Below are positions 2,411 through 26,576 of a stretch of DNA of 64,000 nt, in pieces. Source of the DNA: a virus. Numbering within the stretch: position 1 is the first letter of the stretch; every line of letters begins with the position of its first letter. A model generated the notes under the pieces. That model saw only the letters and a program-made list of their open reading frames with translations. It did no database searches and was not told the DNA's origin. The position numbers were made by a program, and so were the translations under genes. The DNA lies in the IMG/VR virus record IMGVR_UViG_3300033148_007251, positions 1 to 64,000 of that record; one strand, written 5' to 3'.

Positions 2411-3442
2411 TTATCCTCTTTTTGGTAGTTGAATTTCTGAATAACTTTCATTTCTTTTAATGCGTGAAACAGTATCAAGTGAAACATCAAATTTTTTAGC
2501 TATTGTTTTTTGAAAAATACCATCATTTAACATTTGTCTTATTTTTAAAATTTGGTTTTTTGTAAATTTACGATTATATTTTGACAACAAACTTAAATCT
2601 ACATTAGGTATTTGGATATTTGCATATATTTGATCTCTTTTAATAAGACCAATAGTTTCCTGAGCAACACCAAATTTTTTAGCTATTCTGGAATAAATTA
2701 TTCCATTTGATAATAATTGTTTAATTTCTAAAATTTGACTATCTGTAAACTTGCAACCACCTTTTGGCAGCAAACTTAAATCTGTGTTTTGTAATTGAAT
2801 ATTTTCATAACATTCGTTTCTTTTAATGCGACCAATAGTTGAAGTTACAACATTAAATTTCTTTGCAATTTTACATTGGGACACTCTGTTTAATAACAAT
2901 TGTTTAATTTCCAAAATCTGATCTTTAGAGAATATCTTTCTTGCTTCAGATCTCGCTTTGCAAATTTCAGCAGAAAGTACTTTTCCTTTGTGTATTTCGG
3001 ACAATTTTTTGCGAGTTTCAGCAGAAGGATTTTTACATGCTTCAGATATTTTCTTTTTGTGTTCTTTTGAATGTTTTTTCCCTTTATTTCCATTCCCTAT
3101 CTTTTTGCGTGTTTCTTTAGATGGAGTCCACCCTAAATTTCCTTCCCCTCCATCAGTTAGATTGTATCCATTTGGTATTTTAGTATTAAGAAATTTAATA
3201 CATTCAATTTCTTTTTTACATAACTCTTCCCAACTATTACATTCATATATTATTTTATATTTAAATTGTTTTTTGCTATATTTTTTTATTGCCCTATGTA
3301 AATATGAGTTCTCATATTTATTGGAATTGAAATGTTGCTTCATTCGTCGTTTATAATCAACAGTTATACCAATATAGGATTTACCACTATTAATATTAGT
3401 GATTTTATAAACAACAAATTTTTTATATTTTTTGGTCTTCAT
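2411..3442 (-). CDS. GIY-YIG homing endonuclease (NUMOD3 + 3 HTH repeats), paralog 2
   Basis: Same GIY-YIG motifs as paralog 1. Start reassigned to ATG 3442 (MKTKKYKKFVVY) by alignment with the paralogs. Confidence 0.9.
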   Translation of the reverse strand: MKTKKYKKFVVYKITNINSGKSYIGITVDYKRRMKQHFNSNKYENSYLHRAIKKYSKKQFKYKIIYECNSWEELCKKEIECIKFLNTKIPNGYNLTDGGEGNLGWTPSKETRKKIGNGNKGKKHSKEHKKKISEACKNPSAETRKKLSEIHKGKVLSAEICKARSEARKIFSKDQILEIKQLLLNRVSQCKIAKKFNVVTSTIGRIKRNECYENIQLQNTDLSLLPKGGCKFTDSQILEIKQLLSNGIIYSRIAKKFGVAQETIGLIKRDQIYANIQIPNVDLSLLSKYNRKFTKNQILKIRQMLNDGIFQKTIAKKFDVSLDTVSRIKRNESYSEIQLPKRG

Positions 3443-19534: not shown

Positions 19535-20311
19535 TTATTTAAATTTAGCTCTACTAAGATTAGCTCCACTAAGATTAGCTCTACTAAGGTTAGCTTCACT
19601 AAGGTTAGCTCTACTAAGGTTAGCTTCACTAAGGTTAGCTTCACTAAGGTTAGTCCAACTAAGATCAGCCCAACTAAGATCAACTCTACCAAGGTTAGCT
19701 TCACTAAGATCAGTCCCACTAAGATCAGTCCCACTAAGATCAGCTCTATGAAGATCAGCTCCACTAAGATCAGCTTCACTAAGATCAGTCCCACTAAGAT
19801 CAGCTCTATGAAGATCAGCTCTATGAAGATCAGCTCCACTAAGATCAGCTCTATGAAGATCAGCTCCACTAAGATCGGCTCTATGAAGATCAGCTCCACT
19901 AAGATCGGCTCTATGAAGATCAGCTCCACTAAGATCGGCTCCACTAAGATCGGCCCAACTAAGATCACCCCAACTAAGATCAGTTTCACTAAGGTTAGCC
20001 TTATCAAGGTTAGCCCTACTAAGATCACCCCAACTAAGATCAGTTTCACTAAGGTTAGCCTTATCAAGGTTAGCTTCGTTAAGGTTAATCTTACTAAGAT
20101 CAGCTCTACCAAGGTTAGCTTCACTAAGATCAGTCCCACTAAGATCCGCCCCACTAAGATCCGCCCCACTAAGATCCGTCCCACGAAGATCAGCCCCACT
20201 AAGATCAGCTCTTATTTTAATAGCATTTCTTAGAGTTTTTCTTATTGTTTTTAAATTATCTTCGAATATTATTTTTTGAGTTTTTTTATGTATTATTTTC
20301 ATAATTTTCAT
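19535..20311 (-). CDS. pentapeptide repeat protein
   Basis: About 44 A(D/N)LxX repeats (ADLSG, ADLHR, ANLSE) after a short basic N-terminus; SD AAAGG. Confidence 0.9.
   Translation of the reverse strand: MKIMKIIHKKTQKIIFEDNLKTIRKTLRNAIKIRADLSGADLRGTDLSGADLSGADLSGTDLSEANLGRADLSKINLNEANLDKANLSETDLSWGDLSRANLDKANLSETDLSWGDLSWADLSGADLSGADLHRADLSGADLHRADLSGADLHRADLSGADLHRADLHRADLSGTDLSEADLSGADLHRADLSGTDLSGTDLSEANLGRVDLSWADLSWTNLSEANLSEANLSRANLSEANLSRANLSGANLSRAKFK
19545..20210. repeat. 15-bp tandem repeat array encoding the pentapeptides
   Basis: Degenerate unit ACTAAG(A/G)T(C/T)AGCTCC repeated throughout. Confidence 0.9.
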
Positions 20312-20318
20312 TTTACCT

Positions 20319-20816
20319 TTATGAGTTTATGGTAAATTTAATTTCATTCAAAGTTTTGTCAATAATTTTCTTCTTCCATCCTATTTTGACTAAGTATTTG
20401 GATAATTGATATACACTTAGTTTGGATTTAGGAATCATATTTATCAAATCTTTTGGGGCATCAAAAATAATAGCAACTATATCTTTCGCTTCATTTGTCA
20501 TTTTGTTTAGGGAGTCTTTAAAGATACATCTCTTTTCCTGGTTACCGCCATCAGTACTGTTAGTTTCTTCTATAAACTCACAAGAGATATGCTTATTTTT
20601 ATTTTGATTATTCTTTGTGATAATATTTTTGAATCTATTTTCTACTGATGAAAACAATAATGTTGAGAATTGTCCTTTTTTTGAATCATGTAGGGGAAAG
20701 CATTCTGCAAATAAAAGATTACATTCCCCCACAGCATCATCAAGTTCCGTATGAGACCTGGTGTGCCATTTCCATGCCTGCTTTTGTATCATTTTTGAAT
20801 AATCTTGATATTCCAT
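20319..20816 (-). CDS. RNA polymerase sigma-70-like factor
   Basis: Region-2-like YSKMIQKQAWKW...ELDDAVGE....F......HDSKKGQFST.L...VEN; start placed at MEYQDY after SD AAGGGAG. Confidence 0.6.
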   Translation of the reverse strand: MEYQDYSKMIQKQAWKWHTRSHTELDDAVGECNLLFAECFPLHDSKKGQFSTLLFSSVENRFKNIITKNNQNKNKHISCEFIEETNSTDGGNQEKRCIFKDSLNKMTNEAKDIVAIIFDAPKDLINMIPKSKLSVYQLSKYLVKIGWKKKIIDKTLNEIKFTINS

Positions 20817-20841
20817 TTTTGTTGCTCCCTTTTTGTTTAGT

Positions 20842-21078
20842 TTAATGTAATGTCTGTCCTTCATTATTAACTTCGCAAAAATCCTTTGATGTAACAGCAT
20901 ATGCGTATTCTTGTTCAGACACTACATCTATTAATGCATTCCAGTCAATTTCCCCATAATTAAGAGGGATATTATGCAAAACTATATATTTGGCTCGTAT
21001 TCTATCTTGCCCATAAACATCATCATCATAATAAGGGTTTTCATAAAATTTAAAACTTTTTGTTATGTTGTATTTCAT
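20842..21078 (-). CDS. hypothetical protein
   Basis: Small ORF with SD in the small-gene cluster. Confidence 0.5.
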   Translation of the reverse strand: MKYNITKSFKFYENPYYDDDVYGQDRIRAKYIVLHNIPLNYGEIDWNALIDVVSEQEYAYAVTSKDFCEVNNEGQTLH

Positions 21079-23413: not shown

Positions 23414-23996
23414 GTTATATCTCCTTTTAATTAAATTACAAACTCCAATATGGTTTTTTATTTCAAATTATCCCATAATGTTTTTACCGATATATAATGC
23501 TAACTTATTTAGTGCAAGTAATAGTTGTTTTTTTGTAATTTTATTCCCATTTTTAATACGTTTCATTAACAGCGTCTAATTTATCCATAAGCATTTCGAT
23601 ATGTTTTGTTTTCTGTACTCCTAATATAGATTCAATTGATACGTTTCCATGTAACAGTTGAACTTTATACACTTTATTTTGGGCTAACCATATTTCTTTT
23701 TTTTCGTTTATCATAGCATCCATATTATTTTGTCTCCTTTTTAAGGGTGTTTCGATTTCAAAAATCTATTGCCTGTTTTTATGATTTCAAAAATCTACTT
23801 AATGTTCCGTTTTAGGTACGTATTACAATTCTTACAATGAAAACCCAACATATTCTTTTTGATAGCCATAGATAAACAATCATCATACTTTCCACAGCAT
23901 ATGTATCTGTTATTAGCGACATCACGTGCATACATAATACCACATTCTGTTATTGTTTTAATTGCTTTGGTCATTGTTTTTTTCTCCTTATATTTA

Positions 23997-24269
23997 TTAT
24001 ATATATGGGATGTTTTGAGTTAACCATTTTTTGAGTTTTTTTTTACCCGTAAACGTTAGGTCTAATGTATTATATAACATTATTACATCTTCATATGATG
24101 CAATGATCATTTCATGTACCGCATCATAATAATGGGGTTCATTATCATATCTTTGATATCTCACTCTATAAAATAGAGGGTTTGGAATTATTTTTAATCT
24201 AATTTGGAAGTTGTCACCTTTTAATTTTGTGTTGTGTATACTTTTGTTTTGCAATATCAATATTTCCAT
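23997..24269 (-). CDS. hypothetical protein directly downstream of hammerhead 1
   Basis: SD GGGAGGTGA right after the ribozyme. Confidence 0.6.
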   Translation of the reverse strand: MEILILQNKSIHNTKLKGDNFQIRLKIIPNPLFYRVRYQRYDNEPHYYDAVHEMIIASYEDVIMLYNTLDLTFTGKKKLKKWLTQNIPYI

Positions 24270-24290
24270 TTTAATATCACCTCCCTATAA

Positions 24291-24344
24291 AGTGTTTCGA
24301 TCTTTAAGATCTCATCAGTGACAGTCACATAACAGCCAGACACT
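24291..24344 (-). ncRNA. hammerhead ribozyme, type III (copy 1)
   Basis: RNA reads AGUGUC^UGGCUGUUAUGUGACUGUCA-CUGAUGA-GAUCU(UAA)AGAUC-GAA-ACACU. Full catalytic core, stems I/II/III and a GUC cleavage triplet; predicted cut between 24339 and 24338. Confidence 0.9.
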
Positions 24345-24391
24345 AAGAGCAGTTTAATGACTTGCTGAGGTCATTATATTAGATTGTAATG

Positions 24392-24559
24392 TTACTGAAT
24401 AATTTTTGCTGCCCAATCTGGAACATCCACTTCTTTGCCAGATTTATTTGTAATTTTATAATATCTACCATTATTGCCAATCTCAATGGTAGCACTATAA
24501 ATTTCTTTTTTTGTAATTCCCAACCAGCTTATTAATGTATCTGTTATTATGATTTTCAT
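24392..24559 (-). CDS. 55-aa hypothetical protein between the two hammerheads
   Basis: MKIIITDTLISWLGITKKEIYSATIEIGNNGRYYKITNKSGKEVDVPDWAAKIIQ; SD AAGGAGGAG; below the ORF-track cutoff. Confidence 0.7.
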   Translation of the reverse strand: MKIIITDTLISWLGITKKEIYSATIEIGNNGRYYKITNKSGKEVDVPDWAAKIIQ

Positions 24560-24578
24560 AATGCTCCTCCTTTTTAAT

Positions 24579-24632
24579 AATGTTTCGATTTATAAAATCT
24601 CATCAGTAACAGTAATATAACTGTTAGACACT
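24579..24632 (-). ncRNA. hammerhead ribozyme, type III (copy 2)
   Basis: RNA reads AGUGUC^UAACAGU(UAUAUU)ACUGUUA-CUGAUGA-GAUUU(UAU)AAAUC-GAA-ACAUU; predicted cut between 24627 and 24626. Confidence 0.92.
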
Positions 24633-24852
24633 AAGAGCATCCATTAGCTTGCCTTATATAATAAGGTAGAGGCATCCTGGTATGTCCATTCGGTTCTCAA
24701 TGCTGTTAGGTTTTTAGTAACCCTGCATGATGGAGTCCTTGACTATTTGTCGAGGCGTCTATTTTTTTATTTCAAACAAGATGTTTTTTAATGGGTTTAC
24801 TTGCTGGCACCGTTTCCCGTGTGCCTCTTGTTTGTTCTTGTTTATATAGTAC

Positions 24853-24868
24853 TGCAAACCGTGTGCCA
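24853..24868 (-). promoter_or_regulatory. sigma-54 (-24/-12) promoter
   Basis: TGGCAC-ACGGT-TTGCA matches the TGGCAC-N5-TTGCW consensus; intergenic and pointing into the hammerhead operon. Confidence 0.8.
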
Positions 24869-25010
24869 TGTTGTTAAATAAATCGTAATAAATATTAAAA
24901 GTAATGTAAGTTACTTAAATTATTATGTATATATTTTATCAAGATAATTTAAATACCTTTTGTTTATTGTAAATTTAGCTATTTTAGATACATTTAAAAT
25001 TGGACTGGAC

Positions 25011-25107
25011 TGGACAGTCATACACTTTTGTAAATATTTATAATAGAATCAATATATTATAAGATGAATACTCTAAATCATACACTCCTGGACAGTCGTA
25101 CACTTTT
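25011..25107. repeat. 19-bp direct repeat pair (candidate enhancer/UAS)
   Basis: TGGACAGTCATACACTTTT at 25011-25029 and TGGACAGTCGTACACTTTT at 25089-25107, plus partial copies. Confidence 0.6.
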
Positions 25108-25115
25108 TAACCCTA

Positions 25116-25487
25116 TTATAGATCCTCAAACCATATAATTTTTTTCTTATCTACTATGTTAGGTTTAATATCTTGTTTTGACTTAGGTTTAAATATTGGT
25201 GTTTCAATAGGCTGTGTGTCAATAATGGCCCGTGGTATATATTCTACATAATCATTAATATATTCTTTTATTTGATTTACTGGCCAAAACCACTCCCCTC
25301 TAATGTGATATGTGGCAAAGCTTCTGTGCAACTCTTGTTCAAATCCTATATCTCCATCAATAGCTTTGATTATAGTTAATTGTTCCCATGAACCCGTTTG
25401 TAATTGTTTTAGTCTATCATTTATATCTCTACTTGTGTACCCGATTTTAATTGGCCCTGATGTCCCACTTTGTATAAAGTATATCAT
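25116..25487 (-). CDS. GIY-YIG T5orf172/MUG113-like protein
   Basis: MIYFIQ....GPIKIGYT.....RLKQLQTG...EQELH..F....IRGEWF. Confidence 0.82.
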   Translation of the reverse strand: MIYFIQSGTSGPIKIGYTSRDINDRLKQLQTGSWEQLTIIKAIDGDIGFEQELHRSFATYHIRGEWFWPVNQIKEYINDYVEYIPRAIIDTQPIETPIFKPKSKQDIKPNIVDKKKIIWFEDL

Positions 25488-25536: not shown

Positions 25537-25662
25537 TTATTCGTTAACTATTCCGGGATATACTACGATGTATCCTTGTTGGGCGTAAGAATCAGCCTTA
25601 CTTGGAACTCCATAATCGACGTGAACCCAACGGCCATTTATTTCCTTATAAAGTTTTACCAT
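25537..25662 (-). CDS. 41-aa hypothetical protein
   Basis: MVKLYKEINGRWVHVDYG... after SD AAGGAG, just downstream of a sigma-54 site. Confidence 0.6.
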   Translation of the reverse strand: MVKLYKEINGRWVHVDYGVPSKADSYAQQGYIVVYPGIVNE

Positions 25663-25714: not shown

Positions 25715-25730
25715 AGCAAGATTAATGCCA
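25715..25730 (-). promoter_or_regulatory. sigma-54 (-24/-12) promoter (second)
   Basis: TGGCAT-TAATC-TTGCT with correct GG-N10-GC spacing, about 50 nt before an SD/ATG. Confidence 0.7.
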
Positions 25731-25909
25731 GGTGTTATAATATTTGTTATTTAGTTTGTAACATTTGGATATTATAGTGTAAAAGTTGATGAATGTTCAA
25801 AACGACGTCAGGTTGAAAATTGTGTAATTGTGGCATCGACTACCAAAATTTGTCATATTTTTGCCATATTTTGTTATTGATGATTATTTTGAAATTAAAA
25901 ATTTACAGC

Positions 25910-25944
25910 CCTTGACAACTGAAATTTATGCTTTATTATATAGT
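25910..25944 (+). promoter_or_regulatory. sigma-70-type promoter A
   Basis: CCTTGACAACTGAAATTTATGCTTTATTATATAG: TTGACA-N17-TATTAT; near-duplicate at 26542. Confidence 0.65.
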
Positions 25945-25964
25945 TATAACCAATATATAAAATT

Positions 25965-26322
25965 ATATGTGATCCGGTAAAATTTCTATTTAAGACCTGT
26001 ATACCGGCTATCAAAGTAACAACAGGCATCGGTTGGCTAACCGGTACAATAAATTCAAGCTATCCAATTTCAAATGGCATTTGTATCCGTCCATTTGGCC
26101 CCGTTCCTGCAACCCAGGGGATCATTGTGAATAAAGAGATTATTTGGAATCTCTTTGCCTCAGTTAAGACAGAACTGGATGAGGGCAATCGTTTTGTAAA
26201 AAGCGATTCAAACACAATGCGTTTTTTATATGAACTTATGACACGAAGTTGACGACACATACGGCAAAAACAATATCCCCCTATTTTAAATTTATTTTTT
26301 TTAAATTTAAAATAGGGGGATA
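25965..26322 (+). ncRNA. candidate structured non-coding RNA
   Basis: Lies between promoter A and a 21-bp inverted repeat; many short hairpins and a four-way junction; no credible ORF. Confidence 0.45.
26274..26322. terminator. perfect 21-bp inverted repeat (terminator-like hairpin)
   Basis: TATCCCCCTATTTTAAATTTA ... TAAATTTAAAATAGGGGGATA. Confidence 0.65.
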
Positions 26323-26352
26323 ACTATCTTCAAAATTAACTTCTCCAATGGC

Positions 26353-26402
26353 AATATTAATTATTAAATATTAATTATTAAATATTAATTATTAAATATT
26401 AA
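26353..26402. repeat. 14-bp pure-AT tandem repeat (about 3.5 copies)
   Basis: AATATTAATTATTA repeated. Confidence 0.8.
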
Positions 26403-26541
26403 AAATGCACGCTTATATAATAAGGTATATCGATAATCATACCAAGGTAACAATAATTATTTAATAGCTAAAATTAAATAAAAAAAATTTACATTTAATT
26501 CAACTCATTATGGATAAAAATAAAAATATTTTGCCGTTGCC

Positions 26542-26576
26542 CCTTGACAACTAAAATCTATGTATTATATTATAGA
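26542..26576 (+). promoter_or_regulatory. sigma-70-type promoter B for the virion operon
   Basis: CCTTGACAACTAAAATCTATGTATTATATTATAG, upstream of terS. Confidence 0.65.

Follow-up and report, generated by a model that had tools for sequence, protein, structure and literature searches.

In the 64,000-nucleotide (nt) window analysed here, bases 1-64000 of the complete, 75,279-bp IMG/VR virus record IMGVR_UViG_3300033148_007251 with direct terminal repeats, two type III hammerhead ribozyme motifs (HH1 and HH2) were found on the minus strand at the head of a leftward gene train. Each stands shortly before the Shine-Dalgarno sequence (SD) of a small open reading frame (ORF), namely ORF90 and ORF55, behind a sigma-54-type promoter box (P1) and a 216-nt leader that runs from the inferred transcription start (~24842) to the HH2 cut (Table 1). 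The record is a complete, uncultured, siphovirus-like phage of ~75 kb, and its leftward small-gene operon is early-type. Judging from the sequence, our preference leans slightly towards an operon that is driven by P1 and divided by its self-cutting hammerheads into separate RNAs. An original prediction, made from the letters and their ORFs without database searches, had described the promoter, the upstream repeats, both ribozymes, the ORFs and a decayed third copy, and all of these were found where it had placed them.

The succession GUGUC, stem-loop I, CUGAUGA, stem-loop II, GAAA and stem III, which is the type III layout, occurs twice on the minus strand, and CUGAUGA...GAAAC has only two sites in the window (24294-24318 and 24582-24606). 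The invariant core is complete in both copies, with CUGAUGA at C3-A9, GAA at G12-A14, the A15.1-U16.1 pair and C17 all present, and the core-adjacent pairs G10.1-C11.1, U1.1-A2.1 and A15.1-U16.1 are intact (G-C, U-A and A-U, respectively). As the original prediction had stated, GUC, CUGAUGA and GAAA are present in both copies, each in its proper position. Stem I comprises 7-8 bp, stem II 5 bp and stem III 5-6 bp; stems I and II are closed by loops, stem III is open, and a single U·U mismatch lies within stem I of HH1. Under the structural definition of Perreault et al. (2011), both copies qualify as putative type III hammerheads. The alignment puts C17 at 24627 in HH2 and at 24339 in HH1, giving predicted cuts at 24627/24626 and 24339/24338, 288 nt apart, the same positions as those predicted originally.

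HH1 and HH2 are very AU-rich and share 85% identity over 59 nt, and the 12 nt that precede the two cut sites, GCUCUUAGUGUC, are identical. Their differences include a change from U-A to C-G in stem II and one from A-U to G-C in stem I. Further along the operon, a remnant at 23734-23767 matches the 3' part of HH2 (stem II, GAAAC and the SD) with 85% identity and has lost CUGAUGA and stem I, in keeping with its earlier description as a decayed hammerhead with another SD. This remnant was not detected by a covariance model built from HH1, HH2 and the copy of a related phage described below. No other ribozyme class or known RNA was found in the window or in that relative.

One true relative was identified, the 24-kb IMG/VR contig 3300033144_004508 (G001), whose structural proteins are 60-85% identical to those of the phage. 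The order of elements in G001 is the same: the promoter box (TGGCACATGGTTTGCA) is followed by a leader in which long blocks are identical, then by a single type III hammerhead, an SD and an ORF. Its hammerhead has GUA at the cut site, intact core positions and a stem I rebuilt with compensatory changes. Among HH1, HH2 and the G001 copy, four stem pairs are altered on both sides with pairing retained, and 94% of the cells pair, compared with 31-50% when the partners are slid, which agrees with the original observation that the stems differ yet still pair.

The covariance model found no second copy in G001, including the 2.7 kb downstream, and none in a helicase-related 74-kb contig (L007) or in 68 TerL-related viral loci. 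The unit of promoter, hammerhead, SD and ORF that the original prediction proposed to look for in related contigs is kept in G001, but its tandem layout is not conserved. Because G001 has a single hammerhead, the tandem pair is not the conserved feature; as far as these sequences indicate, that feature is the hammerhead at the junction of leader and first gene. Furthermore, the model matched the unrelated phage G003, where a leader of ~170 nt, a type III hammerhead, an SD and the first ORF follow one another; in other viral contigs there are two type I hammerheads whose stem II is the same. Scans of viral contigs with the leader and promoter patterns returned only G001, the remaining matches being chance ones in coding DNA, and two metagenome pattern scans gave either nothing or only unrelated bacterial sigma-54-like promoters.

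P1 is the sole perfect match to TGGCAC-N5-TTGCW in the window. G001 has an identical box followed by 17 identical nt, and the similarity starts exactly at the -24 element (TGGCAC), upstream of which the sequences have diverged. With the looser pattern TGG[CT]A[CT]-N5-TTGC[AT], two boxes were found in the phage (0.25 expected) and five in G001 (0.08 expected). All seven are intergenic, lie in AT-rich DNA and are co-oriented with an SD and ATG located 45-60 nt, or one leader length, downstream; they keep GG-N10-GC and the flanking hexamers, and their spacers vary. These features make it likely that the TGGCAC-N5-TTGCA boxes belong to the sigma-54-type promoter class, and the consensus promoter of the original prediction is borne out as a perfect match that is conserved in G001 and recurs at the early blocks of that phage. 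Immediately upstream of the leader there is no good sigma-70-type site. In the 68 TerL-related viral loci and L007, no intergenic box of this type was found; boxes on the plus strand of the TerL-related loci were set aside, as they occupy a fixed place inside a structural gene. The G001 boxes, at 3000, 8121, 9006 and 11766 (minus strand) and 12032 (plus strand), head separate small early gene blocks, and in three of the five the SD is preceded by a common short leader, ...TATAGGCATGA(T)GACGAAAACAA....

Upstream of P1, by 140-240 nt, lie two copies of a 20-nt direct repeat, AAAAGTGTAYGACTGTCCAG, which had 0 matches in shuffles and is not palindromic. The original prediction had called these repeats enhancer-like. 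They are present in the phage, but as such they are not kept in G001, where only the hexamer AGTGTA/TACACT recurs, with three occurrences upstream of P1 in each of the two phages. In addition, AATTGTCA stands upstream of all five G001 boxes. The 20-nt repeats, the hexamer and AATTGTCA are regarded as candidate upstream activator words.

Comparison of the leader with G001 revealed conserved blocks, such as the hairpin top ACGGGAAACGG carried on a covarying stem. Across 31 predicted pairs, eight of them altered on both sides, all cells pair, compared with 23-39% when the partners are slid, this structure having been predicted from, and compared in, the same two sequences. The leader also folds better than its shuffles (z = -2.5 in the phage and -2.1 in G001). 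Together, these results are suggestive of a conserved and structured leader. No Rfam family matched it, and a search of the phage genome for antisense targets gave no convincing one, only a second copy of the leader's own palindromic hairpin: the 16-nt element TACCTTATTATATAAG, in the 24652-24667 region of the minus strand, recurs at 26412-26427 in the 26.4-kb intergenic region. Hairpin 2 of the leader (24737-24755), read on the plus strand, is a terminator-like hairpin with a U-tract and is also present in G001. A sigma-70-like site, TTGCCA-16-TATAAT, lies on the plus strand inside ORF55 (24435-24462), and an antisense RNA of ~300 nt could start there, cover HH2 and end at hairpin 2.

We propose that the leftward operon would be transcribed from P1, starting near 24842, into a primary transcript that contains the leader, HH2, an SD, ORF55, HH1, an SD, ORF90 and further small ORFs. 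Just behind the GUC, each type III hammerhead would cleave itself. The cleavage products of hammerheads have 5'-OH and 2',3'-cyclic-phosphate ends, and RNases stimulated by a 5'-monophosphate act poorly on 5'-OH ends. The upstream RNA would end in a 2',3'-cyclic phosphate a few nt past a small hairpin, and the downstream mRNA would have a 5'-OH at its start, followed by the folded ribozyme body, which would stand 7-10 nt ahead of the ribosome-binding site (RBS). The products would be the leader, an ORF55 mRNA and an mRNA for ORF90 and the genes onward, with translation and decay independent of the upstream sequence. What the sequences show are the motifs, how they are conserved and covary, and promoter boxes that recur; we infer the start at P1, cleavage in the cell and an effect on mRNA stability or translation. 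The mRNA stabilisation and insulation put forward in the original prediction would be parts of that effect.

Several observations weigh against this proposal. HH1 and HH2 are matched by the Rfam model Hammerhead_3 (RF00008), the check suggested originally, at 35.5 bits (E 1.8e-7, genome) and 28.6 bits (E 1.5e-5, genome), respectively, but both fall under the gathering score of 48.5 bits, which is the curators' cut-off for automatic annotation and not a structural criterion. Neither copy appeared in the Rfam output at the gathering threshold or in the whole-window E-value scan. The covariation evidence for the hammerheads is modest, as it comes from three sequences and one true relative. In isolation, the minimum-energy fold of both HH1 and HH2 is a helix of UCUUAGUG with CACUGAUGAGA that joins the sequence just before the cut to the catalytic strand (24636-24600 for HH2 and 24348-24312 for HH1, minus strand), at -10.7 kcal/mol vs -9.8 kcal/mol for the hammerhead fold in HH1 and -9.8 vs -7.5 kcal/mol in HH2. 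As this alternative fold hides the core, cutting by HH1 and HH2 may be slow or conditional. The alternative pairing is absent from the G001 and G003 copies, for which the hammerhead fold is the minimum-energy fold, and in a 142-nt context HH1 is predicted to fold as a hammerhead as well.

The promoter and the host raise further difficulties. Sigma-54 requires an ATP-dependent activator, and the complete phage genome contains neither a Sigma54_activat match nor a sigma-54 gene; the lone weak AAA+ match was rejected as an activator, being a clamp loader. As the genome lacks sigma-54 and an enhancer-binding ATPase, activation would have to come from the host or from an unrecognised factor of the phage. 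At 25800-25771 there is a sigma-70-like site, TTGAAC-18-TATAAT, and no terminator was detected from there to the leader; read-through from this site into the operon could therefore occur. Relatives of TerL occur in metagenome-assembled genomes of several phyla, and neither the NrdD look-alikes nor a capsid search against isolated phages (identity <=32%) pointed to one host. The original claim that a host signal gates the promoter is unsupported: the complete genome yielded no activator, and these searches no host. Strong SDs, an early region of ~30% G+C and an anaerobic ribonucleotide reductase suggest an AT-rich, SD-using anaerobe.

The same facts bear on whether the boxes are sigma-54 promoters at all. 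They might be DNA sites of another factor or part of an RNA, with the operon read through from the upstream sigma-70-type promoter, an alternative that we take seriously but consider unlikely. In its favour are the absence of an activator and of sigma-54 from the phage genome, with no host found, the TTGAAC-18-TATAAT site with no terminator before the leader, and the conservation of 10 nt after the -12 element, beyond the needs of a promoter alone. Against it, P1 is the exact textbook consensus, the seven boxes keep their hexamers and GG-N10-GC over varying spacers, phage/G001 conservation begins precisely at the -24 element, every box holds its set distance from an SD and ATG in AT-rich intergenic DNA, and YuA offers a precedent among phages (cited in bioRxiv 10.1101/2023.10.13.562163). 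The conservation pattern bears, too, on what the ribozyme is for. What the phage and G001 have in common is the leader with one hammerhead at the leader/first-ORF junction, and not the tandem pair; the conserved job of the hammerhead might then be to free the structured leader as an RNA of its own or to expose a masked RBS of the first gene, or both, making it a regulatory device and not a passive insulator. The double changes among the leader pairs and the better-than-shuffled fold speak for leader release, but they come from only two sequences, from which the structure itself was predicted, and the leader has no Rfam family and no convincing antisense target in the phage genome. Unmasking is suggested by predicted folds in which CCUCU of the leader pairs with the ORF55 SD and CUCUU before HH1 pairs with the ORF90 SD, extending stem III; since these pairings are not kept in G001, nor in G003, they are only leads. 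We judge this regulatory role to be quite unlikely. A broader version is more speculative and distinctly improbable: this small group of phages would run its early blocks on the host sigma-54 polymerase without an activator of its own, and in one of them the hammerhead would free the conserved 216-nt leader as a structured RNA ending in a 2',3'-cyclic phosphate and, at the same time, unmask the RBS of the first gene. If it were true, the ribozyme would serve to mature a non-coding RNA of the phage and to switch translation, beyond separating cistrons. The leader that the ribozyme would release is the less ordinary part of the locus and was not placed among known things.

Two other explanations concern the tandem copies. 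The motifs might be inactive or decaying relics of a duplicated intergenic cassette of hammerhead and SD, with no present role, as one of the three cassettes has already decayed, alternative folds compete in HH1 and HH2, and their Rfam scores are under the cut-off. The invariant core, however, is intact in HH1, HH2 and G001, the stem substitutions are compensatory, and unrelated phages have the motif in the same place with respect to the SD, leaving this explanation very unlikely. Alternatively, the 288 nt between the cuts, which enclose a complete SD and ORF, might be excised as an ORF55 RNA that closes into a circle, forming a circular mRNA or a mobile RNA cassette; with the same 12 nt before both cuts, the excised 3' end could re-pair with stem III of HH2 and draw the two ends close to each other. 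This seems highly improbable, given that G001 has a single hammerhead with none in the 2.7 kb downstream, that the third cassette is decayed, and that circular or spliced products of tandem prophage hammerheads were sought and not found by Perreault et al. (PMC3088659).

The features of the locus are collected in Table 1. The protein of ORF90 had zero homologues in a search of a 5.8-billion-protein set, the search with ORF70 led to one 1.7-kb contig, and a scan of viral contigs with an alignment of the ORF55 homologues found none. Pfam and PHROGs gave no matches for the small ORFs.

Table 1. Features of the hammerhead locus, listed in the direction of the leftward operon
Feature	Position	Strand	Remarks
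Sigma-54-type box P2, TGGCATTAATCTTGCT	25715..25730	-	One mismatch; 53 nt upstream of SD and ATG of the 41-aa ORF
41-aa ORF (MVKLYK...)	25537..25662	-	Homologue within the G001 hammerhead operon
T5orf172/MUG113-domain gene	25116..25487	-	Between P2 and the 20-nt repeats
20-nt direct repeat, copy 1	25088..25107	-	Candidate activator site; includes AGTGTA, with another AGTGTA directly after
20-nt direct repeat, copy 2	25010..25029	-	
Sigma-54-type -24/-12 box P1, TGGCACACGGTTTGCA	24853..24868	-	Inferred transcription start near 24842
Leader, 216 nt	24627..24842	-	Several predicted hairpins; conserved in G001
Putative hammerhead 2 (HH2), type III	24579..24632	-	GUC, predicted cut after 24627; stem I 7 bp, stem II 5 bp, stem III 5-6 bp
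55-aa ORF (ORF55)	24392..24559	-	SD AGGAGG; few small homologues of unknown function elsewhere
Putative hammerhead 1 (HH1), type III	24291..24344	-	GUC, predicted cut after 24339
90-aa ORF (ORF90)	23997..24269	-	SD GGGAGG
59-aa Cys-rich ORF	23795..23974	-	
Decayed third hammerhead-plus-SD cassette	23734..23767	-	Stem II, GAAAC and SD kept; CUGAUGA core and stem I lost
56-aa ORF after the remnant	23553..23723	-	

Beyond the locus, the genes of the long leftward train include small ORFans and those for a pentapeptide-repeat protein, an SF2 helicase, NrdD, DnaB, a gp32-like protein and a RecA-like protein, and from ~26.8 kb the plus strand carries the genes for terminase, portal, major head and tape-measure proteins. 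At the far end of the small-gene block, a 193-aa ORF (20319-20900, minus strand) has a weak match to Sigma-70 region 2 (E 0.004, below the cut-off) and may encode a phage sigma factor for later genes. The pentapeptide-repeat protein (19535-20311, minus strand) has 8+ repeats, coded by a 15-nt-periodic DNA repeat. A 35-nt repeat is present in two copies on the plus strand (25909-25943 and 26541-26575), each with a near-consensus sigma-70 promoter (TTGACA-16-TATTAT and TTGACA-16-TATATT) directed rightward, toward the terminase and structural genes. The divergent intergenic region contains a perfect 21-bp inverted repeat (26274-26322), which on the minus strand forms a 20-pair terminator-like hairpin and is adjoined by AT-rich tandem TAATATTTAATAAT repeats (~26350-26400).

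In its overall form, the locus is no new system but a good new instance of an arrangement known from phages since 2011. Perreault et al. (PLoS Comput Biol, PMC3088659) found that prophage genes, singly or in short blocks, are often flanked by several hammerheads; they demonstrated cleavage both in vitro and in vivo and suggested that the transcripts are processed into mRNAs of single genes. The same paper describes a hammerhead of haloviruses HF1/HF2, located 13 nt ahead of the first ORF in an early transcript; the 5' end mapped for that transcript lies at the cut site. For bacterial and phage hammerheads in general, a 2019 review (PMC6765202) regards the function as open, with an mRNA-processing role suggested and not established. 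The sigma-54 side has a precedent in Pseudomonas phage YuA, for which use of a sigma-54 promoter is attributed to Ceyssens et al. 2008 (as cited in bioRxiv 10.1101/2023.10.13.562163). The original claim of an undescribed system must therefore be withdrawn, while the mechanism it proposed, cutting of the transcript into single mRNAs, is reasonable and is already the published hypothesis for such arrangements.

As in the clusters of Perreault et al., several closely spaced hammerheads flank single small phage genes of varying identity, and, as in HF1/HF2, HH2 stands shortly before the first ORF of an early operon. Different from those clusters, both hammerheads here are type III, very AU-rich, under the Rfam cut-off and predicted from sequence; they belong to a lytic-type phage with direct terminal repeats and not to a prophage, and they are preceded by a sigma-54-type box and a conserved 216-nt leader. 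YuA, as represented in the citing preprint, is likewise a virulent siphovirus-type phage with a sigma-54-like promoter, which it has among promoters for the host RNA polymerase. The YuA promoter is backed by a promoter trap and transcription start site mapping, whereas the boxes described here come from sequence and comparison, in an AT-rich genome whose relative carries several of them.

P1 resembles bacterial enhancer-dependent sigma-54 promoters in its exact -24/-12 consensus and in the repeated elements 140-240 nt upstream; unlike them, it has no activator protein identified in the phage genome, and its repeats are non-palindromic and not conserved in G001. RiboJ is reportedly a synthetic insulator (Lou and colleagues, 2012) that combines the sTRSV type III hammerhead with a hairpin. 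The comparison with RiboJ made in the original prediction fits the geometry, as here too a type III hammerhead lies between promoter/leader and RBS, would cut at its own 5' edge and would stay on the downstream mRNA just before the SD, so that this mRNA starts with a 5'-OH and the ribozyme body. RiboJ, however, is an engineered part in which a dedicated hairpin keeps the RBS exposed, whereas an effect on expression is an expectation for the phage, whose hammerhead flanks may mask the SD before cleavage.

The locus shows that routine Rfam annotation misses AU-rich hammerheads of this kind. Its predicted recurrent sigma-54-type boxes, together with the absence of an activator from a complete genome, would extend the thin published record of phages that use sigma-54. 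The sister phage separates the parts that are kept, namely the promoter box, the leader and one hammerhead, from the tandem copy, which is not. To the known arrangements of phage hammerheads, the locus adds a compact case in which the putative ribozyme sits at a conserved junction of leader and first gene, 7-10 nt before the RBS.

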